The position numbers and the translations under genes were made by a program. Below are positions 1,490-16,055 of a DNA stretch of 16,200 bases, in pieces. Source of the DNA: an uncultured bacterium (GTDB lineage: Bacteria; CSSED10-310; CAZUFC01); assembly GCA_964619725.1 (NCBI GenBank), contig CAZUFC010000052.1:1-16200 (forward strand). The letters run 5' to 3'. How positions within the stretch are numbered: position 1 is the first letter of the stretch; each line of letters starts with the position of its first letter. Below the pieces are notes generated by a model. It ran no database searches and was not told the DNA's origin. It saw nothing but the letters and a program-made list of their open reading frames with translations.

Positions 1490-3052
1490 ATGAAACATAT
1501 GCTTGGATTTTTAATATTGTTTTCTGTGTTGATGTCGGCGACGGGTTGCGGCAAGGGCGTTCGCGAGGGACATCAGGTATTCGTTCTGGGGTTGGACGGA
1601 GCGGATTTTCGTTTGATTGATCCCTGGCTGCGCAACGGGGATTTGCCGAATTTAAAGAGCGTGATGGATTCAGGCAGCTCCGGGATGCTGAAGTCCACAA
1701 TACCGGCGATATCGCCTGCTGCCTGGACGTCGGCCATAACGGGAAAGAATCCGGGCAAGCACGGCATTTTCGATTTTTTCTACCGGAAGCCGGGAACTAT
1801 GGAATCGGCTGTGACGACCTCAATGAACAACAGCGAGAAGACGATTTTTGAGATAGCCGGAGATTACGGCAAAAAAACGATTTCAGCCAATATTCCACTG
1901 ACTTATCCGCCGCGGACGATCAAAAACGGCATCCAGATATCGGGCATACCCAGACCTGATTCAGGCTTTGTCTATCCGCCGGAAATGGAATCAGAAATTC
2001 TGCATCAGGGTTACAAAAACGACCTGTTTGATGCGCATCCTCAACCGGGAACGGAAGAAACCTATCTTGATGCGGCTCGTGCCGTAAGACAAAGCCGAAT
2101 CGATTTCGCTCTGCCGATATTGAAAAAAGGCGATTGGGACCTTTTCTGGCTGACGCTCATGGGAACGGACGTAATGGAGCATTATTACTGGAAATACATG
2201 GACCCGGAGCATCCCGAATATGATCCTGATGCGCCGGAAAAGTTGAAAAACGCGCTGCATGATTTCTGGATCGAAACGGATAAAGCGGTGGGACTGATGC
2301 GCGATGCCCTACCGGAAGGGACGATATTCGTGATAATGTCGGATCATGGAATGGCTCCTGTGTACCGGGAGTTTCGCGTTTCCGACTGGCTTGTTGAAAA
2401 CGGTTATCTGGGGATCGATCCCCGGAAGATTAAAGCCTACCCCTTCTTTTCCGTTGGCGGAAATATCTTTATTTATCTTAAAGGACGAGAACCCAACGGC
2501 GTTATCGAACCGGGAGAAGAATACCGGCGTCTGACCAGAGAAATTGCCGACAAGCTGAAGCAAACCAGAAACCCGCAGACCGGCGAAGCTGTCGTTCAGG
2601 ATATATTTTTGAAGGACGAACTGTTCAGTGGAACTCATCTGGATGCAGCTCCCGACATAGCGTTTACGGCTGTGCCCGGTTATTTCGTCTGTCGCGGAGA
2701 ATTCCGCACCAAAAACCTGGAAATTTTCGGACCGCTTTCCATGGTTTTCGAAGCTTATCACAGGCCGGAAGGCATACTGGCCATCAGCGGCGATCCCGTT
2801 AAATCCGGATACCGCTTCGCCGAAAGTTCCATTTACGACGTAACTCCAACCATCATGCACCTGATGGGATTGCCCGTGCACAAAGATATGGACGGCGGCG
2901 TGCTGGAAGAATTGCTTCAGGAATATTACGTGAAAGCGCATCCCGTTGCCTTCAAAGAGGTGAAAAAGAAGGATAAAAAGCCCCCGGAACTTGAGCCGGA
3001 ATTATCGGAAGAATTTTTGGAGAAGATGAAATCGCTCTCCTACGTGCAGTAG
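1490..3052 (+). CDS. Alkaline phosphatase superfamily protein (type I phosphodiesterase/nucleotide pyrophosphatase-like), probable lipoprotein
   Basis: 520-aa ORF; GAGG RBS upstream; signal peptide ending in lipobox-like SATG-C. Motifs VFVLGLDGA, STIPAISPAAWTSAITGKNPGKHGIFDF (nucleophile region), TDVMEH, MSDHG, YHRPEG, DVTPTIMHLMG, and the C-terminal EKMKSLSY helix. Confidence 0.9.
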   Translation: MKHMLGFLILFSVLMSATGCGKGVREGHQVFVLGLDGADFRLIDPWLRNGDLPNLKSVMDSGSSGMLKSTIPAISPAAWTSAITGKNPGKHGIFDFFYRKPGTMESAVTTSMNNSEKTIFEIAGDYGKKTISANIPLTYPPRTIKNGIQISGIPRPDSGFVYPPEMESEILHQGYKNDLFDAHPQPGTEETYLDAARAVRQSRIDFALPILKKGDWDLFWLTLMGTDVMEHYYWKYMDPEHPEYDPDAPEKLKNALHDFWIETDKAVGLMRDALPEGTIFVIMSDHGMAPVYREFRVSDWLVENGYLGIDPRKIKAYPFFSVGGNIFIYLKGREPNGVIEPGEEYRRLTREIADKLKQTRNPQTGEAVVQDIFLKDELFSGTHLDAAPDIAFTAVPGYFVCRGEFRTKNLEIFGPLSMVFEAYHRPEGILAISGDPVKSGYRFAESSIYDVTPTIMHLMGLPVHKDMDGGVLEELLQEYYVKAHPVAFKEVKKKDKKPPELEPELSEEFLEKMKSLSYVQ

Positions 3053-3695: not shown

Positions 3696-5060
3696 CTATC
3701 TACCGTCTTTGACGGTAAAAATAGGCACCAGTCCTCCTCCTGCAGAGATATTGATGACGGAGGAGTCCGACAAACGGACGAAACCGCCTGCCACCTGTCC
3801 GTCGTATACGTAGAAATTGGTGTTGACTTTTTTAGGCTGCCAGGTCAGTTTGCCGTTTTCGTCCGCCACAGGCATATCGATTTCGGGTATGGGACAGTAT
3901 TCCTGAACGACGCAACGTTTATTTACAGTGTCTTTCAGGTAGGCATCCCATTCCTCCTGGGTCGCATCTTCGCCGATGATGACGTCTTTTCCTCCCAGTT
4001 CATCAATGGGTTTCATTATGAGGGTATCTTTATTGGTGCTGGTGAATTCATAGAGATCGACCGGTTTGCCCTTGTATTCGGTTTTGCTTTGTTCCAGATA
4101 ACGTGTCCAGGGGATGTGGTCTCTTATCACTTTTCTTTCAAATTCATCGAAGAGTTTCTGCATACGTTCTTCCTGGATCACGGCCAGCAGGTGTTTATTG
4201 TCGCAGAGTTTGCAGCGCATGGCGTTCACTACGCACACTTTGCCGTCCTGGCACGCCTTGATCAAAGGCTTAATTTCATCCATATGATCGGTCCAGTCTC
4301 TTCCCCATCCCCTGCGCAGAATAGTGTTGACCTTGTGATCCTTGTAATGCAGGTCTTTTCCGTTGTATTCCAGGTCTCTGGGGTCGCATACGATCGCCGG
4401 ATAACCCCTTTCCTTGGCAAACCTGGCGATCATATGAAATTCCGTTATCGTCGATGATTCTCTGCCTCCCACTATGGCGATGCGCGGAACGTCGGAACCG
4501 CCGAATTCATAATAACTCGTGATTAAAAGCGTCAGGTCCTGAGGTAAAAGTATATCACGCCCCAGATCATATTTCTGCTTGGTCCTTTTCATCACTTCTC
4601 TATTTTCCAGAAGTTCGACCTGCGTATCCGTGTAGGCGGCTCCTCCGGGAGAATCGCAATTGAATTCGATGTATTTCAGTTCCGTTTCAGTGGCGAAGGC
4701 ATCCAGCCGGCAACGTTTGACCTTGCGCAGCAGGTGGGTCGGAATATTGACTAAAAAATCTTCTTCCGGCGTCAGTTTATAAATGTCTTTATACTCATCC
4801 CCCTGAAAATACAGATCGCCTACCTTTTCCATCAACGACAGTATGGCGGCGCTGGCCTTGTTGATGTACATCCGCCGTTCCGCTGAAAAAAAGAACGGTT
4901 TCAAAAATGTGGGTATCGGCTTATCGTATATCCTTAATCCCTTCTGTAGAAACTGTTCATTCAATTCAGCCGTTTCCTTGTGAACCGGATAACCCGTTTT
5001 GTCCAACTCTTCAATCAGTTCATTAAAATCAGCATTGATCTTTTCGATTATTTCCGTCAT
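3696..5060 (-). CDS. Circularly permuted ATP-grasp (type 2) / glutathionylspermidine synthetase-like ligase
   Basis: 454-aa ORF with strong RBS (GGAAAGGAG). Motifs RLD...IEFNCDSPGG, DPRDLEY, NK, IPWTR, KPIDELGGKDVIIG, VVQEY, INISAGGG. Confidence 0.85.
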   Translation of the reverse strand: MTEIIEKINADFNELIEELDKTGYPVHKETAELNEQFLQKGLRIYDKPIPTFLKPFFFSAERRMYINKASAAILSLMEKVGDLYFQGDEYKDIYKLTPEEDFLVNIPTHLLRKVKRCRLDAFATETELKYIEFNCDSPGGAAYTDTQVELLENREVMKRTKQKYDLGRDILLPQDLTLLITSYYEFGGSDVPRIAIVGGRESSTITEFHMIARFAKERGYPAIVCDPRDLEYNGKDLHYKDHKVNTILRRGWGRDWTDHMDEIKPLIKACQDGKVCVVNAMRCKLCDNKHLLAVIQEERMQKLFDEFERKVIRDHIPWTRYLEQSKTEYKGKPVDLYEFTSTNKDTLIMKPIDELGGKDVIIGEDATQEEWDAYLKDTVNKRCVVQEYCPIPEIDMPVADENGKLTWQPKKVNTNFYVYDGQVAGGFVRLSDSSVINISAGGGLVPIFTVKDGR

Positions 5061-5327: not shown

Positions 5328-8012
5328 TCAGAGTTTTTTATCTGCATCTACGAGGGAGTCGTCTGATCCTGCGTCCAGCTCGAATTTTCTTTTTTCGAAG
5401 AGGGATATCATGCGGGGATTATCTGTTGTGGTTTGAGCCACGACGAGTTCCAGACCCCAATCTTTAGCGATTTCTATGCAATAGTCGGTAAGGATGCCGC
5501 CCAGTCCTTTATTTTGCCATTCGTCTGTGATGAGGACCGCGTATTCTCCTGTTTTCATGTCGGGAGCGCCGACCAGTCTTCCTACGCCCAAGAGTTTACG
5601 TTCGTCATTTCGGTTCAGTTCAGCCACTATGGCCATTTCACGATCATAATCTATGAAGCAGTATCTCACCGCTACCTCGTGCGATGCCCAATGAAACATG
5701 TAACGGAAACGCATATAGATAGATTCGCGGGAACAGCTTCCCAGCATATCCATCCACAGAGGTTCATCTTCAGGTTTAATGGGACGCAGGGTGACTTCTG
5801 TTCCGTCCTTCAGGACGGCGCTGCGTATATATTCTTCGGGATAGGGCCTCAGTGCGAGGTGAGCATAAGGTCTGACTTCCGAAAATTTAATTTCGGGATC
5901 GATTATTATGCGGGCGTCAAGCGCTATCACTCCGTCCGGAGAGACCAGCAGAGGATTGATGTCCAATTCTTTAATCTCAGGATAATCGGCCGCTATGTAA
6001 GACAGTCTCATCATGGTTTCCAGCAGCTTATCAATATCAGCTTTGGGCCGGCCGCGATATCCGTTCAGCAGGGGCCAGGCTTTGAGCGATTCCAGCATGC
6101 GCATTGCCAGTCGCTCGTTCAAGGGCGGGAAACCCAGCGCCCGGTCTCTGAACACTTCCGCTCCCGTGCCCCCAAGCCCCACCATAATCACCGCTCCGAA
6201 TACCGGATCGCTTTTGGCGCCCAGTATCAGCTCCGTCGAATGCTTATGCCTCACCATTTTCTGAACGGTGACTCCTTCAATTTCCGATTCAGGATGCCTG
6301 GTTCCCGCTTGCTCCATGATATCGCGGAAACCGTTGTGAACCATCGCCTCATTCTGAATGTTCAATTTAACGCCGCCTATATCCGATTTATGAGTAATTT
6401 TCTCCGACCATATTTTCAATGCCACGGGATATCCGATTTTTTCCGCTATCTCCACGGCTTCTTCCGCAGTTTTCGCGGGTTGAGGCATTGTCGCCGATAT
6501 CCCGTAATCGTTCAGCAGCTTTTTCGATGTTCTTTCGTCCAGGATTGATGAACCGCCGCAAATGATGTTCTGGAAATCCTTCCTTATCTGTTTTCGATCC
6601 AGTGAAAATTCGACCGGCATCTCTTTCGGCGTTTCGTAGATGATCTCCAGGTTTCGGGAATAGGAGACCAACGACATGAATGCCCTGACGGCCTGTTCCG
6701 GCGTATCATACGCTGCTGCTCCCGCATCGCTGAGTATCCGGACGCCTTCCTGCATGCTTTGTCCGCCGACCCAGGCGGCCAGAACAGGTTTTCTGGTCGT
6801 TTCCGCGAGTTCACTTACCGCTTTGGCCGCTGATGTAGGATTAGTCATCGCCTGCGGAGTCAGAATAACCAGGACCGCATCGACTCCCTTGTCGTTCAGA
6901 ACGGTCTTGACGGCCTTGGTTATCCGTTTGGAACGGGCGTCCCCCAGGACGTCCACGGGATTACCATGCGACCAGAAAGGCGGAAGGAACTCGTCTAAAT
7001 TCTTTATCGTTTCTTCCGATAATTCAGCCAGAATTCCCTCATTCGCAATCAAGGCATCCGTCGCCATTACGCCAGGTCCGCCCGCATTGGTCACTATTCC
7101 CAAGCGAGCCCCTCTCGGCAGTTTGCCCCTTCCGATCAGTTCCGCAACATCGAATATTTCGCCGATATTGAAAACCCGAACTATGCCCGCTCGCTGAAAC
7201 GCCGCACGGTATACCGCATCCTCTGCAGCCATCGCTCCCGTATGTGATGCCGCCGCTTCCGCCGATTCAGGAAAACGCCCAGCCTTGAATGCCACAATCG
7301 GTTTGGTGCGAGCAAAAGCACGGGCCGCTGTCATGAATTTACGCGCATTTTTGATCGACTCTATATATAAAATAATCGATTCAGTGGATTCGTCTTCTCC
7401 AAAATAATCGATTAAATCAGCAAAATCCACGTCAACACTGTTCCCAATCGATACGAAATAAGAAAAACCGATCTTCTCTCCCTGAGCCCAATCCAGGATC
7501 GAAGTTCCAAGGGCTCCCGATTGCGATATAAAAGCTACATGACCGCTTTTGGGTACAGCATTGGCGAACGTCGCATTCAAGTTTAATCCGGGAACAACTA
7601 TGCCCAGACAATTGGGGCCTATTATCCGCATATCTTTAAATGCCGAGGCTTCCTTTTTTACTCGCCGCTCCAGCTCCAACCCATCAGGTCCGATCTCCTT
7701 GAATCCGGCCGATATGATGATAATCCCCATTATGCCTGCCTCGCCGCATTCCCTGACGACTTCAGGAACCTGAGATGCAGGCGTGCAAACCACGGCCAGG
7801 TCCGGCGTCTTCGGCAAACTCCGGACGTCCGGAAAACAGGATATGCCCAGCACCGCCTCACAGGATGGATTCACAGGATACACCACGCCGCGGAATCCGG
7901 CGCCGATTAAATTTCTCAATACCGTCCCCCCGACGCTCTTCGGATTCCGGGTTACCCCTATTACCGCGATGCGCTTTGGTTTAAAAATACCATCAAGATT
8001 GTGTATATCCAT
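5328..8012 (-). CDS. pat: Bifunctional acetate--CoA ligase (ADP-forming)-like / GNAT N-acetyltransferase (Pat/YfiQ-type protein lysine acetyltransferase)
   Basis: 894 aa. CoA-binding domain (IAVIG, YPVNP, GPNCLG); ligase domain (SQSGA, SHTG, TNAGGPGV, NPVDVLGDA); ATP-grasp (GYPVALK, HKSDIGGV, DINPL, ALDARI); C-terminal GNAT (RPIKPED, GEYAVLI, WQNKGLG). RBS (GAGGA) upstream. Confidence 0.93.
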   Translation of the reverse strand: MDIHNLDGIFKPKRIAVIGVTRNPKSVGGTVLRNLIGAGFRGVVYPVNPSCEAVLGISCFPDVRSLPKTPDLAVVCTPASQVPEVVRECGEAGIMGIIIISAGFKEIGPDGLELERRVKKEASAFKDMRIIGPNCLGIVVPGLNLNATFANAVPKSGHVAFISQSGALGTSILDWAQGEKIGFSYFVSIGNSVDVDFADLIDYFGEDESTESIILYIESIKNARKFMTAARAFARTKPIVAFKAGRFPESAEAAASHTGAMAAEDAVYRAAFQRAGIVRVFNIGEIFDVAELIGRGKLPRGARLGIVTNAGGPGVMATDALIANEGILAELSEETIKNLDEFLPPFWSHGNPVDVLGDARSKRITKAVKTVLNDKGVDAVLVILTPQAMTNPTSAAKAVSELAETTRKPVLAAWVGGQSMQEGVRILSDAGAAAYDTPEQAVRAFMSLVSYSRNLEIIYETPKEMPVEFSLDRKQIRKDFQNIICGGSSILDERTSKKLLNDYGISATMPQPAKTAEEAVEIAEKIGYPVALKIWSEKITHKSDIGGVKLNIQNEAMVHNGFRDIMEQAGTRHPESEIEGVTVQKMVRHKHSTELILGAKSDPVFGAVIMVGLGGTGAEVFRDRALGFPPLNERLAMRMLESLKAWPLLNGYRGRPKADIDKLLETMMRLSYIAADYPEIKELDINPLLVSPDGVIALDARIIIDPEIKFSEVRPYAHLALRPYPEEYIRSAVLKDGTEVTLRPIKPEDEPLWMDMLGSCSRESIYMRFRYMFHWASHEVAVRYCFIDYDREMAIVAELNRNDERKLLGVGRLVGAPDMKTGEYAVLITDEWQNKGLGGILTDYCIEIAKDWGLELVVAQTTTDNPRMISLFEKRKFELDAGSDDSLVDADKKL

Positions 8013-9934: not shown

Positions 9935-10135
9935 ATGAAGGTTGAAATTGAGCGGGAAGAAGATGGTCGCTGGATTTCTGAAATTCCAGAACTGCCAGGT
10001 GTTATGGCCTACGGGCGGAGTCGCGAAGAAGCGATTTCTAAGGTGAAAGCTTTAGCTTTGCGAGTAATGGCTGACCGCTTGGAACACGGCGAGGTAATCC
10101 CCGAACTCCGTGAGGTTTTCGCGGTACAGTCATAA
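9935..10135 (+). CDS. hicB: HicB-family antitoxin (short form, no DNA-binding domain)
   Basis: 66 aa, MKVEIEREEDGRWISEIPELPGVMAYGRSREEA (partial RNase H fold signature); GGAGG RBS at 9922-9926. Confidence 0.92.
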   Translation: MKVEIEREEDGRWISEIPELPGVMAYGRSREEAISKVKALALRVMADRLEHGEVIPELREVFAVQS

Positions 10136-10347
10136 GTAAATGGCCATCGACCAAGGCGCGGCTCGTTTTGGCAGCTTTACTTCGAATTGGATGGACAATA
10201 AAGCGTCAAAGCGGGACATCTCACCGTGTTCTATCGCGAGAAGGATGGTCGAATTACGTTTTTGCATTTCATGACCGTGAAAAAATTGGTCCTCGCATGC
10301 TTGCACGAATTGCCAAACATACAGGCTTGAAACCCAAAGACCTATGA
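10132..10347 (+). CDS. hicA: HicA-family mRNA interferase toxin; first codon is ATA (possibly silenced); absent from the ORF track
   Basis: Hand translation: (I)SKWPSTKARLVLAALLRIGWTIKRQSGTSHRVLSREGWSNYVFAFHDREKIGPRMLARIAKHTGLKPKDL*. HicA pattern GW..KRQ.G.SH ... H...IG...L..I....G. First codon overlaps the hicB stop as ATAA. Confidence 0.88.
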   Translation: MSKWPSTKARLVLAALLRIGWTIKRQSGTSHRVLSREGWSNYVFAFHDREKIGPRMLARIAKHTGLKPKDL

Positions 10348-10441: not shown

Positions 10442-10531
10442 TAAACCGCTTCGCGGGAACTTTTTGAATTCCATCGCTATATTTAAATCCCTCCTCAACA
10501 TAAAACAGAATAGTCTTCCCGCCTGTTTTAA

Positions 10532-10560
10532 TTGCATCAGATTGAAAAAATAATTATTAT
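10532..10560 (+). promoter_or_regulatory. Sigma-70-like promoter with no downstream ORF
   Basis: TTGCAT (10532-10537)-N17-TATTAT (10555-10560), preceded by inverted repeat TAAAACAG-N14-CTGTTTTA (10501-10530). AT-rich context lowers specificity. Confidence 0.3.
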
Positions 10561-10613
10561 CAATTAATGTGCCTCTGTAATCATACAGGGGGATCGTTGT
10601 TTTTTAGTGATAT

Positions 10614-10650
10614 AAAAAGCGAAAGCCCTAAGAAGCGACTTCGGACTTTC
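10614..10650 (-). terminator. Probable intrinsic terminator downstream of the class-V PLP gene
   Basis: Minus strand: GAAAGTCCGAAG-TCGCTT-CTTAGGGCTTTC then GCTTTTT; 12-bp stem with one G-U pair and one mismatch. Confidence 0.45.
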
Positions 10651-10860
10651 AATTAAGTTTCCTTTTCATAGGAAACGCAAAACTAAGCTTCCTTATATCA
10701 TTATTTCCATGCGACATTCAAGTTTTTCGAGTTCGTTTTGCTTTTAATAGAGGTTTCGTGTCGTAATTGCAGTTTGGTTTTCCATGTTTGCCGGAGCGTT
10801 CTGCAGTTTGGGCAGGCGGCTACGTATAACGCCCGGAAGAGGCTTTTTTAAGGATTTCAG

Positions 10861-13182
10861 TCAGTCCTCCGATTTTGATGTGCCGGAAATGATTATGGCG
10901 GTACGAAGGGCCTGGATGATTCCCGGAGTGCCGGCATCTTCCATGATGGTCCTGTCTTTAACGTAACGTTGATCGCCGGCTGTCGTCCAGTTGACTATGC
11001 CGCCGCCGACGTCCAGGGGCAGTTTATTTTTGAACATGCCTTCCTGCAGCAGCAGGACCGGATGCGTGAACAGTCCGCCGGGCAGTTCATCCGGGTAAAG
11101 GATTATTCCGTTAATACGGTTTTCTGCAGTTTTAAGCGGAAATTCGTCAAGTACAGGGGTCGCTTCCACGATAATACCGTAATCATATTCCTGCATTTTT
11201 CCAAGCATATCCAGAAATTGTTCTTCTGTGGCGTTCTTGTCGGGTCTGAATATAACGTAACCCGGCCTTCCCCGGCATTCCTCCATGGCTTTGAGCAACG
11301 ATACCCGGTTAACGTGTCGGACTATTTCAGCAACAGGGGAAAAAAAGGTTTCTCGCCAGTCCTGACCGAAAAGGAAAAACACGGTTCTATCCTGCAGAGT
11401 CAGCCTGTCTTTCAAACCGAATTTTTCGGCTTTTTCCTCCTGCACACGAACCCCAAGGTAAAAACTCAGAGCATCAAAACAATCGTAACCGGTTCGAATG
11501 AATTTGAGCGCATAGGAATCATCGGCGCCCAGAGCATCTCTGATTGCATCCTGAGCCTGGCGATAAAAATTCGTCATAACGGTGCCGGTGTAGCTAGTCT
11601 CAGTATGAGTGTTCGCTGCATACTGCAGAATATTCGTTTCTATGTAGTCCTCAACTTCAGTAAGCATGAATCTCTGGTCGTTCTCTCTTTCACCGTCCAG
11701 GTCCGTTCGTAAAACCGGCAGAGTCCGCTTTTCGGCCTTCGGATGGAATTCTCCGGTCTCAGGATTCTGTCGATAATGCGCAGCATATCGCACCCACTCT
11801 TCACTCAGTTCATCCACAGCGTTTAGTATCCGCTCTGCTTCTTCTAAAGAAATTAGTTCATTAAGGGTCATGCGCACCCAGCCGGGTTTCAGATCAAGGA
11901 GGCCCCGGTCGATTCTGTTCCTGTGATAAAGAGACATCTCCTCGTCTATGTCAAGCAGCCAATGACCGTAGGGACCTGCACAGGAGCATCCGGGGCGCAC
12001 CTGAATCCCGTAAAGATCGCTTAACAATCGAGCGATCAGGTTATGATGCACGAAATATTTTTTCAGGCCGTCAGCCGGGTTTCTTTTCAGCAGATAAGGC
12101 ATCAGGGATTGCGGGAGTTCCGAGTTCTTATCGATTTCGTATTTAACCAGAAATGAAATGATGCAGAACCGGGGGCGTTCGACGGCGCCCAGGAGTTCAA
12201 TTTTTTTATTTAACGCCAGGCGATCAAGCGCTGTTTTAGTGTAGAACTTTATCACATTGCGAATGCGCTCCGGATTCATTTTTTTCTTTAAATCCAGAAC
12301 CAGGGCGGTGCGGAATATTTCGATTTTTTCCGCTGGTCTGACTTTTCTGTTGTTCAGTATCTTTCGATAATGACCCAGATGTTTTTTTCTTAAAATGAGC
12401 AGTCCGCATGTTTGAGGCCCGCCGGGGAATTTATGAGGTGAGAGAGCAAGAGCGTCGAGTTGGAGATTTTTCATGTTAATGGATTCGTAGGGAGCGGCTG
12501 CAGCGTAGTCGGCGGCAAGGGCGGCATGGTGTTTATGCACGATTTTTCTTATTTTTTCGATATCCGGGGCAATGCCGGTAATGTTGCTGCCTGCGGAGCA
12601 GACGACCCAGACGGTTTTATTCCGTTCATTTCTGTAGTATTGCAGGAGTTTGTCGAGTTCATCGGAATCAGGTAATCCGTCAGCGTCCATGCAGAGATGG
12701 ACGACTTTTGATGCGAAGCTTTCCCTCAGGACAAGATCAGAGGAATGGTGTTCCATGAGGGTAGTGATAAGGACAGGGCGTTCAGCCTCGGGTATTTTAT
12801 CAGGGGAGACGACTGGAGAGAGGTAATCGGGCAGGCGCCAACCGAGGATATCCCTGAAGAGGAGATTCATAGCGCCGGTACAACCGCTGCCGACAGGGAT
12901 AATCTGATAAGAATCGTCCAGGTTGAATGATGAGGCGATCCGGCGTAAGGAATCATTATATACCCGGTTCAATTCATCCATATCATTTTTTTTCAGAAGC
13001 TTCCGGACTTCCTTTTCGATGCTTCTTACCGGAGAACCCATAGCCGTCGCATCGGCATATATAACGTTGACTTTCCTGCCGAACAGCCCCTCATATTGAG
13101 CTTCCGGAAAATAAAGGTCCTTCCGGAATTCTTCAAAAAAAGCCAGATCGTCCGATATTTCTTCGGGAGGATGTATTTTCAT
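10861..13182 (-). CDS. Aminotransferase class V / cysteine desulfurase-like PLP enzyme with a degenerate C-terminal duplicated large domain (773 aa)
   Basis: Start placed at ATG 13182 (AAGGAG 7 nt upstream) instead of 13353. Motifs YADATA, GSGCTGA, MEHHS, SAGSNITG, DYAAAAPY, LSPHKFPGGP (PLP Lys), LYGIQVRPGCSCAGPYGH, KPGWVR; then a second partial copy with ANTHTETSYTG, GGGIV and EDAGTP. Confidence 0.9.
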   Translation of the reverse strand: MKIHPPEEISDDLAFFEEFRKDLYFPEAQYEGLFGRKVNVIYADATAMGSPVRSIEKEVRKLLKKNDMDELNRVYNDSLRRIASSFNLDDSYQIIPVGSGCTGAMNLLFRDILGWRLPDYLSPVVSPDKIPEAERPVLITTLMEHHSSDLVLRESFASKVVHLCMDADGLPDSDELDKLLQYYRNERNKTVWVVCSAGSNITGIAPDIEKIRKIVHKHHAALAADYAAAAPYESINMKNLQLDALALSPHKFPGGPQTCGLLILRKKHLGHYRKILNNRKVRPAEKIEIFRTALVLDLKKKMNPERIRNVIKFYTKTALDRLALNKKIELLGAVERPRFCIISFLVKYEIDKNSELPQSLMPYLLKRNPADGLKKYFVHHNLIARLLSDLYGIQVRPGCSCAGPYGHWLLDIDEEMSLYHRNRIDRGLLDLKPGWVRMTLNELISLEEAERILNAVDELSEEWVRYAAHYRQNPETGEFHPKAEKRTLPVLRTDLDGERENDQRFMLTEVEDYIETNILQYAANTHTETSYTGTVMTNFYRQAQDAIRDALGADDSYALKFIRTGYDCFDALSFYLGVRVQEEKAEKFGLKDRLTLQDRTVFFLFGQDWRETFFSPVAEIVRHVNRVSLLKAMEECRGRPGYVIFRPDKNATEEQFLDMLGKMQEYDYGIIVEATPVLDEFPLKTAENRINGIILYPDELPGGLFTHPVLLLQEGMFKNKLPLDVGGGIVNWTTAGDQRYVKDRTIMEDAGTPGIIQALRTAIIISGTSKSED

Positions 13183-13484
13183 GAAGTCGCTCCTTTTTGT
13201 GTTGTCGTTCAAAAAAGCATTGCCCTTTGCTGAACGAAACATGACAGCGGGTCTCATCATACAGGGAAGAGGGGGAGAATGGAAGATTGAGAGAAGGAAG
13301 ATTGTGGAAAGGCGCTTGCTGGTTTTGTTGCGGTTGTTATCTCTGATTGTCATTTTTGGGCATTGATCAAAAAAGCGTTACCTCGGTTTGATCAGTCCCA
13401 CTTTTTTATTTTCAGAGAGCTTAACAAAAGATAGACTTGCAATCTTTACTGATGTAATTCATATTCGAGGTGCGAGGAAGAATC

Positions 13485-13577
13485 GTGAATCAGGGATCGA
13501 TGCCGCCGTTTGGATTTTCTGAGAATGATCCAATTGAGGTTGCAATTTTGGAGAATTTCATTTTTTATTATCTGTGA
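13485..13577 (+). CDS. Possible 30-aa small ORF upstream of the radical SAM gene
   Basis: GTG start preceded by GAGGAAG; MNQGSMPPFGFSENDPIEVAILENFIFYYL followed by tandem TGA TGA. No homology evidence. Confidence 0.2.
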   Translation: MNQGSMPPFGFSENDPIEVAILENFIFYYL

Positions 13578-13692: not shown

Positions 13693-14835
13693 ATGCGACC
13701 TTATCTCCCAGGTCCTTTGAAGACTGTGAACATTCATATAACGAACCGGTGTAATTTGAATTGTCGTTGCTGTTATCTGCCGGAGTCTTCCGTGAAAGAA
13801 GGGGAAGGGAAGGAATGGGAGGCAGTGTTTGCAAAACTGGCCGAACTCAATGTGGAGACGATTATGCTTTCGGGAGGGGACCCGCTGCAGCGGGATGATC
13901 TTTTTGAACTGATCCGGGGGATTCGGGGCTATGGTATGAAAGTATATCTGGCAGTGACGGGAGTCGGAGTTAGCGAGGAGCGCTGCAGCCGTTTGTGCGA
14001 AGCTGAACCGGATATGATATTTCTGGGTTTAGACCCTTTTTCTGGAGGGGATAAAGATGCTGCAGCGACTGAAAACAGCAGAGCCGTCGTGAAGCGATTG
14101 ATCGAATCAGGACATAAAATAACCGGCAACCTGATCGTAACGCATCGGAATATCGGGGAGCTCGAGAAAATTGCCGGTGAATTCAAGCGCCTGGGCATTA
14201 TGCATTTGAACCTGTTAAGGCCCAAACCGGACAGAAACGGAATGTGGTTTTCAGAATCGCGACTGACGGCAGAGGACTTATTGAGACTTCAGATTCTAAG
14301 GTTGAGGATCGCACGGAAAGAAAGCATGAGACTAAGCCTGGATTGCGCTTTCGGATGCCTGGTACATGGGTTGTTGCCTCAGAAATTCCTGCTTCAGCGT
14401 TTTCTTTACGCCTGTAATGCGGGAATGACTTATTTTCATATAAATGCCGACGGAGAGATATTCCCCTGTCCCTATCTCACGGAGCGGCAATTTTCCTGCG
14501 GCAATGCGTTTACCGACAATATTCGCGATATATGGCGGGACGCTCCTGTTTTCATGAAGTTACGAAATCACGACAATTTAAAAGGCAACTGTTCGGATTG
14601 CCCCATAAGATTAACCTGCAGGGGCTGCCGGGCCATTGCCCGTTATGATTCGGACGATCTCTTTGGTGAGGATGAGGATTGTCCGTTTAACGGAGACTCA
14701 TATCTGAGTTGCTTCAAGCAGGCGCTTTCAGCGCGATGGGAAATGTTGCTTTTCGCCCTGAAGAATATGTACCGGAAGCGTGAATCCAGAAAACTTCAAA
14801 AAAAACATCATATTGCAAGTAAAGGGAAAAAATGA
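13693..14835 (+). CDS. Radical SAM protein with SPASM domain
   Basis: CxxxCxxC (CNLNCRCC), SGGDPL; SPASM cysteines C-x17-C (CNAG...GEIFPC) and C-x2-C-x5-C-x2-C-x17-C (CSDCPIRLTCRGC...EDEDC); basic C-terminal tail. Confidence 0.93.
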   Translation: MRPYLPGPLKTVNIHITNRCNLNCRCCYLPESSVKEGEGKEWEAVFAKLAELNVETIMLSGGDPLQRDDLFELIRGIRGYGMKVYLAVTGVGVSEERCSRLCEAEPDMIFLGLDPFSGGDKDAAATENSRAVVKRLIESGHKITGNLIVTHRNIGELEKIAGEFKRLGIMHLNLLRPKPDRNGMWFSESRLTAEDLLRLQILRLRIARKESMRLSLDCAFGCLVHGLLPQKFLLQRFLYACNAGMTYFHINADGEIFPCPYLTERQFSCGNAFTDNIRDIWRDAPVFMKLRNHDNLKGNCSDCPIRLTCRGCRAIARYDSDDLFGEDEDCPFNGDSYLSCFKQALSARWEMLLFALKNMYRKRESRKLQKKHHIASKGKK

Positions 14836-16055
14836 AAAGGACAAAAGGAATCAGGTCGCTGGTAATTCTGATGACGGCATTCATATCGGCGTTCATTTTC
14901 TCATCAATCAATGATGCCGAAGCCGCTTCTCAGGAAGCGACGCTTACAGGAACAATTGTGTGTTATGAAACGCAACAGCCGTTGCCCGGAACAGTGATAC
15001 GATGGAAACAATCCGAAGCGACAGCTGATGCGGAGGGTGCGTACACTCTGTCGATTAAGACGGGAATGCGTCGAATCGAGATAAAGCTGCCGGACGGGAG
15101 AGATTTTTCCAAAGTCATACGTATCGAAGGAGGGGATGAATCACACAAGGTCGATTTGATCGCTCCGGGGAAAAGCCGGCCTGCGGGGCGCTGGATATTG
15201 GATATGGGGCCTGATTACGATAAATCAGGGAATGAATTGGAGTCGGATTTCAAAAGGCATTACGAGCTTTGGACAACGGATGCTTTATTCAACAACGGCG
15301 AGCCGCTGAAAATCCCGGAGATAAAAGGCAACATACACTGTCCACAATGGAGTCCTTCGGGAGAAGTGGTCGCTTTTTCGGTCGAAACGATACCCGTGAC
15401 GAAGGAACTGAGGGAATCCAGGGGGATATATTTTTATTCTGTGAAAACCAAGAAGATCAGCAAGAAGAAGCTGGAGACCGGTATATTAAACCTTCATTAC
15501 AGTCCGGACGGCAATCGAATGGCGGCAGCGGATCAGAAATCGGCATTCATAGTGGATTTACAAAAAAATGATGATGACATAGAAAAAATCGTTTCTTTAG
15601 CCGCTGATGAGAACATCCTGTCCGTCACATGGACGCCCTGGAACGCTATATTGCTGACGGTTCATGGAACTTTAGCAGAATGCAATTCAGAGCTCTCTTC
15701 CTGCTCGTGCATAATCATCAATGATGCTGATGACCCGGGAAAACGCCGGTTTTTCGGCGAGCAGGGCCGATGGCTCAGATATCCTCTGCCGCTGGACGAA
15801 CGGGGCAGGATTTTATACGCGTCCTTTGCGGAAAACGGCGCTGATGCTGTGTTTAAAGTGAAAAATTTAGTGAAGGATAAGCCTGCGAGAATTCTTTTTC
15901 GGAATGGGTCCAGGCCCGTTTTCTGGGAGAAGGAGAGCGGGGAGCTGTTCTATATGAAGCAGGATGATTTGCACGTCAATTTTATCGAGCAGTCCATTGA
16001 TTTACTGGCGACGCCTTCCATTGATTCAGCAGATTACTTTGTTTGCAGGGATTGA
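14832..16055 (+). CDS. Secreted protein: carboxypeptidase-regulatory-like beta-sandwich plus TolB/PD40-like beta-propeller
   Basis: Signal peptide (MKRTKGIR-hydrophobic-AEA); ATLTGTIV...QPLPGTVI...ADAEGAYTL pattern; propeller repeats PQWSPSGEVVAFS, HYSPDGNRMA, VTWTP; ATGA overlap with the radical SAM stop. Confidence 0.75.
   Translation: MKRTKGIRSLVILMTAFISAFIFSSINDAEAASQEATLTGTIVCYETQQPLPGTVIRWKQSEATADAEGAYTLSIKTGMRRIEIKLPDGRDFSKVIRIEGGDESHKVDLIAPGKSRPAGRWILDMGPDYDKSGNELESDFKRHYELWTTDALFNNGEPLKIPEIKGNIHCPQWSPSGEVVAFSVETIPVTKELRESRGIYFYSVKTKKISKKKLETGILNLHYSPDGNRMAAADQKSAFIVDLQKNDDDIEKIVSLAADENILSVTWTPWNAILLTVHGTLAECNSELSSCSCIIINDADDPGKRRFFGEQGRWLRYPLPLDERGRILYASFAENGADAVFKVKNLVKDKPARILFRNGSRPVFWEKESGELFYMKQDDLHVNFIEQSIDLLATPSIDSADYFVCRD

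Follow-up and report, generated by a model that had tools for sequence, protein, structure and literature searches.

Class V enzymes of fold-type I, which depend on pyridoxal 5'-phosphate (PLP), are taken to be obligate symmetric homodimers whose active sites are shared. Among them are the cysteine desulfurases; the cross-subunit beta-latch and the His/Arg loop of SufS are central to current work on the gating of persulfide transfer, and SufS T278 binds the PLP phosphate of the partner subunit. Type II desulfurases (SufS, CsdA, and the encapsulin cargo CyD) are homodimers of identical subunits of ~400 aa, each with both the cis and the trans elements of the site. In the protein described here, P0001, these elements are split over two unequal halves of one chain. 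Its gene lies in a stretch of 16,200 nucleotides (the window, positions 1 to 16,200 of contig CAZUFC010000052.1, assembly GCA_964619725.1) from an uncultured bacterium of the GTDB lineage CSSED10-310. We consider it likely that P0001 is a PLP enzyme of a SufS-like (type II cysteine desulfurase-like) kind, built as a fused pseudo-heterodimer with one composite active site per chain.

An earlier, sequence-only reading of this DNA had taken it as established that the His-containing loop, the GGG hairpin, and the Thr of the AGT motif act in trans in SufS and its relatives. The literature bears this out directly for the Gly-rich loop and the hairpin: in a study of E. coli SufS, an alpha-6 Asn makes a hydrogen bond to the Gly-rich loop, and loop and hairpin help to make up the neighbouring monomer's active site (PMC10011822). 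The backing is indirect in the case of the His loop and of the Thr; a second study has H55 and R56 of a SufS loop in contact with S254 and T278, near C364 (PMC11507941).

P0001 matched the Pfam model Aminotran_5 (PF00266) in two stretches, with 93.3 bits against a cut-off of 21.5. The N-terminal half (N-half) alone scored 81.5 bits, and the C-terminal half (C-half) 18.3–18.5 bits, slightly under the cut-off. The best phmmer matches among PDB sequences were type II cysteine desulfurases (E 2.4e-10), the group closest to P0001 in both sequence and structure. When P0001 was compared with SufS 8d8s, the single SufS chain was matched by four pieces that alternated between the halves: chain residues 47–90 by query residues 511–554, 121–247 by 136–266, 249–294 by 716–762, and 351–381 by 379–410. 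Direct comparison of the C-half with the N-half gave no significant similarity (best E 3.7), as expected if what each half retains is complementary. With the type II enzymes the protein shares the PLP Lys motif, the HH motif, the short Cys loop, and the AGTP Thr. A further shared feature, the Gly-rich loop with its beta-hairpin, is present in the C-half alone and deleted from the N-half.

The sequence-only reading had described an N-terminal copy without the ANTH loop and without the GGG...GTP stretch. Alignment with 59 single-copy relatives showed gaps of 10 and ~31 residues at exactly these places. Compared with the consensus of the same 59 sequences, the N-half (residues 1 to ~465) is otherwise complete, down to its small domain, in which the Cys loop and the carboxylate Arg are both present. 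The Schiff-base Lys of class V enzymes and the Asp that faces the pyridine N are present as S248-P-H-K251 and D225. The cis catalytic residues were invariant in 6 of the 6 aligned family members, and so was R396-P-G-C399-S-C401, which aligned with the SufS Cys loop (phmmer domain 4). The BLASTP alignment with the single-copy protein P0026 (E 1e-76, 35% identity) was gapped at both deleted segments. The small domain of the N-half also carries an insert of ~25 residues (residues ~346–376, ~12055–12147) that is common to the two-domain proteins and absent from the single-copy relatives; none of its residues counted as confident interface residues in the complex model described below.

The C-half had been read as a second, degenerate large domain that keeps precisely the segments missing from the first copy and has neither a PLP Lys nor a small domain. 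BLASTP aligned it with residues 43–314 of P0026, that is, with the whole large domain (E 2e-26, 25% identity). The comparison with single-copy relatives, which make up 61 of the 66 rows of alignment A4, showed that the C-half keeps ANTHTE, GGG, the hairpin, and E-D-A-G-T-P. Its losses fall on the catalytic motifs: E-H-H-S has been deleted, K-N-A-T-E is found instead of S-N-V-T-G, Glu has replaced Asp, and Y-P-D-E stands in place of S-x-H-K. The small domain is absent, because the chain stops after the helix behind AGTP. The anatomy of the two halves is thus complementary, the description of the second copy agrees with the alignment on every count, and each motif named by the sequence-only reading was found in place by translation and mapping.

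The same anatomy is conserved, and it is rare. Our homologue search scored 8000 candidates, 6137 of which had E ≤ 0.001, and the 120 best were listed. Among these 120 matches there were five full-length two-domain proteins (767–788 aa, the query included), three shortened versions, and 112 single-copy proteins (497–602 aa) that covered 53–70% of the query with 31–37% identity. The architecture and the losses of P0001 recurred in P0003–P0006 (42–46% identity) and in the shortened P0007; four other full-length homologues therefore carry the split that the sequence-only reading had proposed to search for, with an invariant pattern. Every sequence that shows the junction is fused (P0001, P0003–P0007, P0009, and P0122), and no stand-alone C-half, as would be expected of a split form, was found with the P0001 C-half as query. 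A full HMMER pass with the C-half over 1.84 billion representatives gave 476 matches with E ≤ 0.001. Only the query, P0003, and two fragments, four in all, had E ≤ 1e-30, and two further short fragments came at ~5e-27. We read the short matches P0009, P0122, P0123, and P0124 as contig-end fragments.

Among the 80 best loci of a search over 185,579 species with one genome per species, the two-domain architecture was present in one, a 788-aa open reading frame (ORF) in a metagenome-assembled genome (MAG) of Candidatus Fermentibacteria. The other 79 were of single-copy size and mostly from Actinomycetota. None of the 13 genomes searched from the same phylum as the window had a match to the C-half. 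The Fermentibacteria copy adjoins Mla transport genes, unlike the neighbours of P0001 in the window.

Conservation, taken as the mean pairwise identity among the five full-length two-domain proteins, is distributed unevenly. It was 53% in the large domain and 58% in the small domain of the N-half, and 30% in the linker. Within the C-half, the ANTHTE block (511–580) had 58% and the centre (581–698) 19%, and the block of LPGG, GGG, hairpin, and AGTP (699–766) had 69%, the highest value of the whole protein. Conservation thus peaks at the retained trans segments, so the dead copy is strongly constrained where a subunit enters the site of its partner and almost free elsewhere.

Structure prediction pointed in the same direction. 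The full-length chain, modelled with AlphaFold2 (AF2) from a 70-row alignment (A3), had a mean predicted local distance difference test score (pLDDT) of 88.0 and a predicted template modelling score (pTM) of 0.92, with low confidence only in the linker and at residues 728–742. Searches with this model (VIA wide, VIA on the Foldseek top 1000, and Foldseek) listed only one-domain matches to the N-half, with no two-domain match among the 50 rows shown. The N-half model aligned with SufS over both the large and the small domain (Z 27.0, root-mean-square deviation (rmsd) 2.4, 371 residues aligned, model residues 11–463), and with type II desulfurases overall at Z 27–28 over ~370 residues. The C-half modelled alone (AF2, 66-row alignment A4) had a pLDDT of 89.7 and a pTM of 0.88, and formed a seven-stranded sheet plus hairpin. 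Its best VIA matches covered the N-terminal segment and the large domain of class V enzymes, among them the NifS-like 4ixo_B (Z 19.3, rmsd 3.3, 233 aligned) and SufS 1t3i_B (Z 17.3, rmsd 4.3, 253 aligned, chain residues 7–305). On sequence and on structure alike (BLASTP E 2e-26 to P0026; Z 17–19 to NifS and SufS), the second copy therefore aligns with the class V large domain, a check that the sequence-only reading had put forward.

The packing of the C-half on the N-half, and the contacts between them, are predicted from a two-chain complex model of the N-half (1–489), the C-half (490–773), and PLP. This model placed the C-half in the position of the partner subunit, with ipSAE values of 0.94, 0.94, and 0.95 against 0.44, 0.00, and 0.00 in the controls. 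There were 232–242 contacts, of which at least 96% were common to the runs, and the pLDDT of the partner was at least 86. The ipSAE mark used had been reached by 58 of 80 solved complexes and by 2 of 110 mismatched pairs; these calibration counts are only rough here, because custom alignments and a riding ligand were used. Among the residue pairs of lowest predicted error, T102, the Thr of the phosphate loop G-S-G-C-T-G, was in contact with D724 and with A750, G751, and T752 of E-D-A-G-T-P, and N106 with L723, D724, and V725, immediately ahead of the GGG at 726–728. On the ANTHTE side, A47 and M48 met A523 and N524, and Y42, S388, and Q394, beside the Cys loop, met Y531, T532, and G533. The predicted interface further included H145–S147, S248, H250, and C401. 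N106 is the counterpart of the SufS alpha-6 Asn, by the family alignment and by a comparison of P0026 with S. aureus SufS. The predicted interface suggests that the canonical cross-subunit contacts are reproduced, with the cis side in the N-half and the trans side in the C-half. The model agrees with the idea that the second copy sits in the partner position near the first copy's site, and may echo the solved SufS dimers. Taken together, homology, complementary losses, conservation, and the predicted interface lend computational support to a composite site with cis elements from copy 1 and trans elements from copy 2.

Both halves appear, from their sequences, to derive from a single-copy SufS-like family of the ANTHTE type, by intragenic duplication or by the joining of paralogues. 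This parent family is unnamed ('aminotransferase class V-fold PLP-dependent enzyme', 497–602 aa, mostly Actinomycetota) and shares the ANTHTE, DYAAA.PY, SPHK, and GCSCAGPYGH signatures with P0001, of which neither half alone has all. The single-copy proteins carry every motif in one copy: YANTHTE, GSGxTG, EHHS, SNVTG, DYAAA, SPHK, PGGGTV, the hairpin, EGGTP, and GCSCAGPY. A quick IQ-TREE analysis was done with 44 rows, namely five N-halves, five C-halves, 30 of the 59 single-copy domains (thinned to every second one), and four class V ORFs of the window's own genome as outgroup. The N-halves formed one clade (Shimodaira–Hasegawa-like approximate likelihood ratio test, SH-aLRT, 95) and the C-halves a separate one (94). 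The inner branching of the two clades was nearly congruent, with P0004–P0006 together in both and P0001 and P0003 paired only in the N-half clade; the halves have therefore travelled together since before the five proteins diverged. The tree has weaknesses: long branches meet in it, and the outgroup rows L001 and L005 are very long and misplaced.

The single-copy family (P0010–P0121; loci L010–L088) accounts for most of the 6137 matches and has a C-terminal extension of 100–150 aa. It reaches no curated NCBIfam cut-off and appears uncharacterized. Among 20 ORFs from nine of its loci we found no shared family that would mark a conserved neighbour; greedy ORF calls in this high-GC DNA may err.

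In the enzyme that we propose, the N-half would be the catalytic subunit, carrying PLP on Lys251 together with the phosphate loop, the HH motif, Asp225, the substrate Arg, and the Cys399-x-Cys401 loop. The substrate would be held by Arg437 of the N-half and by the N-terminal strand, and Cys401, possibly Cys399, would serve as nucleophile or persulfide carrier. The C-half would be a catalytically dead paralogue in the partner position that lends what the N-half has lost, closing the site with Thr752, the Gly-rich loop and hairpin, and the ANTHTE loop. The mirror-image site would be dead twice over, with a C-half that has no Lys, HH, or Asp and an N-half that has no trans loops. One composite site would result, not the two of a homodimer, because the N-half has deleted its trans segments and the C-half lends exactly those. 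The reaction may be a PLP-dependent cleavage of the C–S (or C–Se) bond of cysteine that leaves a persulfide on Cys401. We give this chemistry an even chance, because the protein belongs to a distant SufS-like clade for which there is no curated model and has Thr where SufS has Arg56.

Several observations weigh against a fused one-site desulfurase. P0001 missed every curated cysteine desulfurase cut-off by far, the best being sufS (TIGR01979) with 63 bits against 475.1; the NCBIfam CsdA model gave 48.5 bits against 607. The trans loop may work differently from that of SufS, because the family has T after the His, where SufS has Arg56, a residue important for function (PMC11507941). The hairpin at residues 728–742 had a pLDDT below 50 in the full-length AF2 model. 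The high ipSAE may be recall, and show likeness rather than binding, because SufS homodimers are solved. Only ~11 sequences of the two-domain type are known. Finally, by Pfam and the ORF list, no sulfur acceptor (SufE or SufU), suf/csd, or Fe–S assembly gene was found among the ORFs of the window, the rest of the genome not having been searched, and no suf/csd or acceptor genes were seen beside the Fermentibacteria copy.

The same complementary halves could be arranged otherwise. If the C-half completed the N-half of another chain, the protein would be a domain-swapped oligomer, a dimer with two active sites. The linker (466–510) would allow this, since its ~45 residues, 30% conserved and of lower model confidence, could reach either way; the single-chain glycine decarboxylase P-proteins nonetheless form alpha2 dimers (PMC7259800). 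In the two-chain model, however, the C-terminus of the N-half (residues 486 and 488–489) touched residues 14–19 of the C-half, which fits a link within one chain, and the full-length single chain reached the pTM given above; both results are compatible with swapping as well, and we regard the swapped form as improbable. We think it less probable still that the C-half is merely a structural or regulatory appendage or docking platform, with an N-half that works without trans elements, or that the whole protein is a non-catalytic pseudoenzyme. The scores under every curated desulfurase cut-off, the lack of an acceptor gene nearby, and the freely varying centre of the C-half (19%) fit such a role, but it is in the trans segments (58% and 69%), and not on a novel surface, that the C-half is best kept, the catalytic residues of the N-half are invariant, and its deletions remove just what the C-half keeps.

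A trivial origin, in which two adjacent genes or a chimeric contig were read as one ORF by an error of assembly or gene calling, can be given hardly any weight. The source genome is a metagenome bin of 9.17 Mb, 90.9% complete with 6.5% contamination (it has several ordinary class V genes too), and the only contig across the whole gene, a Logan contig of run X1 that spans 10500–13500 with no differences, may itself be the source of the window. In runs X2–X4 parts of the gene were without cover. Against an artefact stand the 773 codons without stop or frameshift and an X2 contig from a second sample (11033–11739), which crosses the boundary between C-half and linker and shows 0 differences. The same junction also occurs in seven other sequences from other assemblies, the 788-aa ORF of the Fermentibacteria MAG included; because the architecture comes from other assemblies, in four full-length proteins and in fragments, misassembly at the junction, which the sequence-only reading had named as a possible objection, is argued against. 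The window DNA was present in microbial-mat metagenome runs, all of one study, and no RNA runs were among those listed as carrying it. Weighing these points, we keep the fused enzyme with one composite site as the likely reading.

The coordinates of the gene and its parts are collected in Table 1. The minus-strand frame of P0001 stays open upstream as far as 13353. The start is likely the ATG at 13182, because the N-termini of the relatives match there and AAGGAG lies 7 nt upstream; a longer ORF from 13353 was ruled out on the same grounds.

Table 1. Coordinates, in the window, of the P0001 gene and of its motifs, domains, and deletion points
Feature	Positions	Strand	Remarks
Ribosome-binding site AAGGAG	13190..13195	-	7 nt upstream of ATG 13182; from sequence
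Whole gene P0001	10861..13182	-	773 codons + stop, no interruption; translation, Pfam, N-terminus compared with relatives
N-half large domain, residues 38–290	12313..13071	-	All cis catalytic motifs; structural match to SufS
Deletion point 1, K65/N66	12985..12990	-	10 residues fewer than single-copy relatives at ANTHTE loop; alignment A3
GSGCTGAMN	12865-12891	-	N-half large domain
EHHS	12742-12753	-	N-half large domain
SNITG	12574-12588	-	N-half large domain
DYAAAAPY	12487-12510	-	N-half large domain
SPHK	12430-12441	-	N-half; Lys251 codon 12430-12432
Deletion point 2, N277/R278	12349..12354	-	~31 residues gone: GGG loop, beta-hairpin, GGTP; alignment A3 and BLASTP gaps
N-half small domain, residues 291–465	11788..12312	-	Cys loop, carboxylate-binding Arg437 region, ~25-aa insert; alignments, phmmer domain 4
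Cys loop RPGCSCAGPY	11968-11997	-	N-half small domain
Linker, residues 466–510	11653..11787	-	30% conserved, lower model confidence
C-half, residues 511–773	10864..11652	-	Degenerate second large domain, seven strands, no small domain; BLASTP, AF2, VIA
ANTHTE loop and TSYTGTV, residues 523–535	11578..11616 (ANTHTE 11599-11616)	-	Kept; AANTHTE invariant in 5/5 full-length proteins
YPDE (then LPGG) for S-x-H-K, residues 696–699	11086..11097	-	Glu where PLP Lys expected
KNKLPLDV-GGG, beta-hairpin, and EDAGTP, residues 718–753	10924..11031	-	Kept; GGG (726–728) 10999-11007, EDAGTP 10924-10941

The P0001 gene looks monocistronic, and its neighbours in the window are unrelated to it. Just downstream, on the opposite strand, lies a HicB-like/HicA toxin–antitoxin pair (9935-10135 and 10168-10347, both +); HicA_toxin matched with 36 bits against a cut-off of 27, and the HicB-like and UPF0150 matches, at 22–23 bits, were under the cut-off. 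Upstream and divergent is a radical SAM/SPASM gene (13693-14835, +), whose best NCBIfam matches, to NirJ2/AhbD-like and peptide-maturase models, all fell far short of the respective cut-offs. The stop of this gene overlaps the beginning of the next ORF, which is beta-propeller-like and 407 aa long (14832-16055, +), and no precursor peptide was seen there. The upstream intergenic segment 13354-13399 was also found on separate, deeper contigs in 4/4 runs (depths of 6.6–41.8; the main X1 contig had 7.9), and the loose ends on either side were the same. A repeat common to other loci or organisms is the probable explanation.

Farther away, an 894-aa protein (5328-8012, -) joins an ADP-forming acyl-CoA synthetase (CoA-binding, ligase, and ATP-grasp parts) to a C-terminal GNAT domain, which is the architecture of a Pat-like protein acetyltransferase, and the adjoining ORF (3696-5060, -) gave a weak match to a circularly permuted ATP-grasp. 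The window begins with an arylsulfotransferase-family ORF (36-1325, +), followed by a type I phosphodiesterase/nucleotide pyrophosphatase ORF (1490-3052, +). Elsewhere in the same genome (G000:C59:47232-48311, L002), a class V match lies within a 747-aa open frame, possibly a different fusion.

If P0001 is what we propose, a single chain with one cis and one trans set would reveal which elements truly act in trans, and would offer a one-site scaffold for studies of half-site behaviour with no heterodimers to make. It would also be a clean case of subfunctionalization through complementary deletion. The wider impact is limited by the rarity of the two-domain type and by its unassigned physiological role.

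Somewhat less firmly than the composite-site pseudo-dimer itself, we favour the view that a symmetric class V homodimer was turned by reciprocal loss into a fused, asymmetric one-site enzyme. The second copy would then survive only to donate the beta-latch, the ANTHTE loop, and the Thr that binds the phosphate, and P0001 would be without precedent in class V and the third independent origin in fold-type I. The sequence-only reading knew of no described example of this architecture. For class V this held: in the open-access literature and bioRxiv, no class V enzyme or cysteine desulfurase turned up that was described as tandem, pseudo-dimeric, or single-chain. The principle itself is documented, since P-protein and serine palmitoyltransferase provide two earlier cases in fold-type I; P0001, if confirmed, would be the third passage from homodimer to pseudo-heterodimer.

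Serine palmitoyltransferase pairs the subunit LCB2 with LCB1, which has no PLP Lys. It belongs to the alpha-oxoamine synthase family, with other chemistry, and is eukaryotic or viral and membrane-associated, unlike P0001. PMC5371807 describes its two subunits as fold-type I paralogues that are fused in most coccolithovirus (EhV) strains and split in two of them.

P-protein, for its part, is a fold-type I enzyme with two homologous halves of common origin and the PLP Lys in one of them, and it occurs split, as an alpha-beta heterodimer, or as one fused chain (PMC7259800). It is a member of another fold-type I family, and its likeness to P0001 is one of architecture only: 1wyt_B matched on one half only (Z 17.2), and the NCBIfam model of the glycine decarboxylase P-protein, GcvPB, gave P0001 10.8 bits (E 0.14) against a cut-off of 441, which leaves P0001 outside that family. 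The active half of P-protein is the C-terminal one and both of its halves have a small domain, whereas P0001 has its active half at the N-terminus and a truncated dead half. P0001 is thus the more extreme of the two, with a dead copy that has no small domain and a live copy that physically lacks the trans loops.

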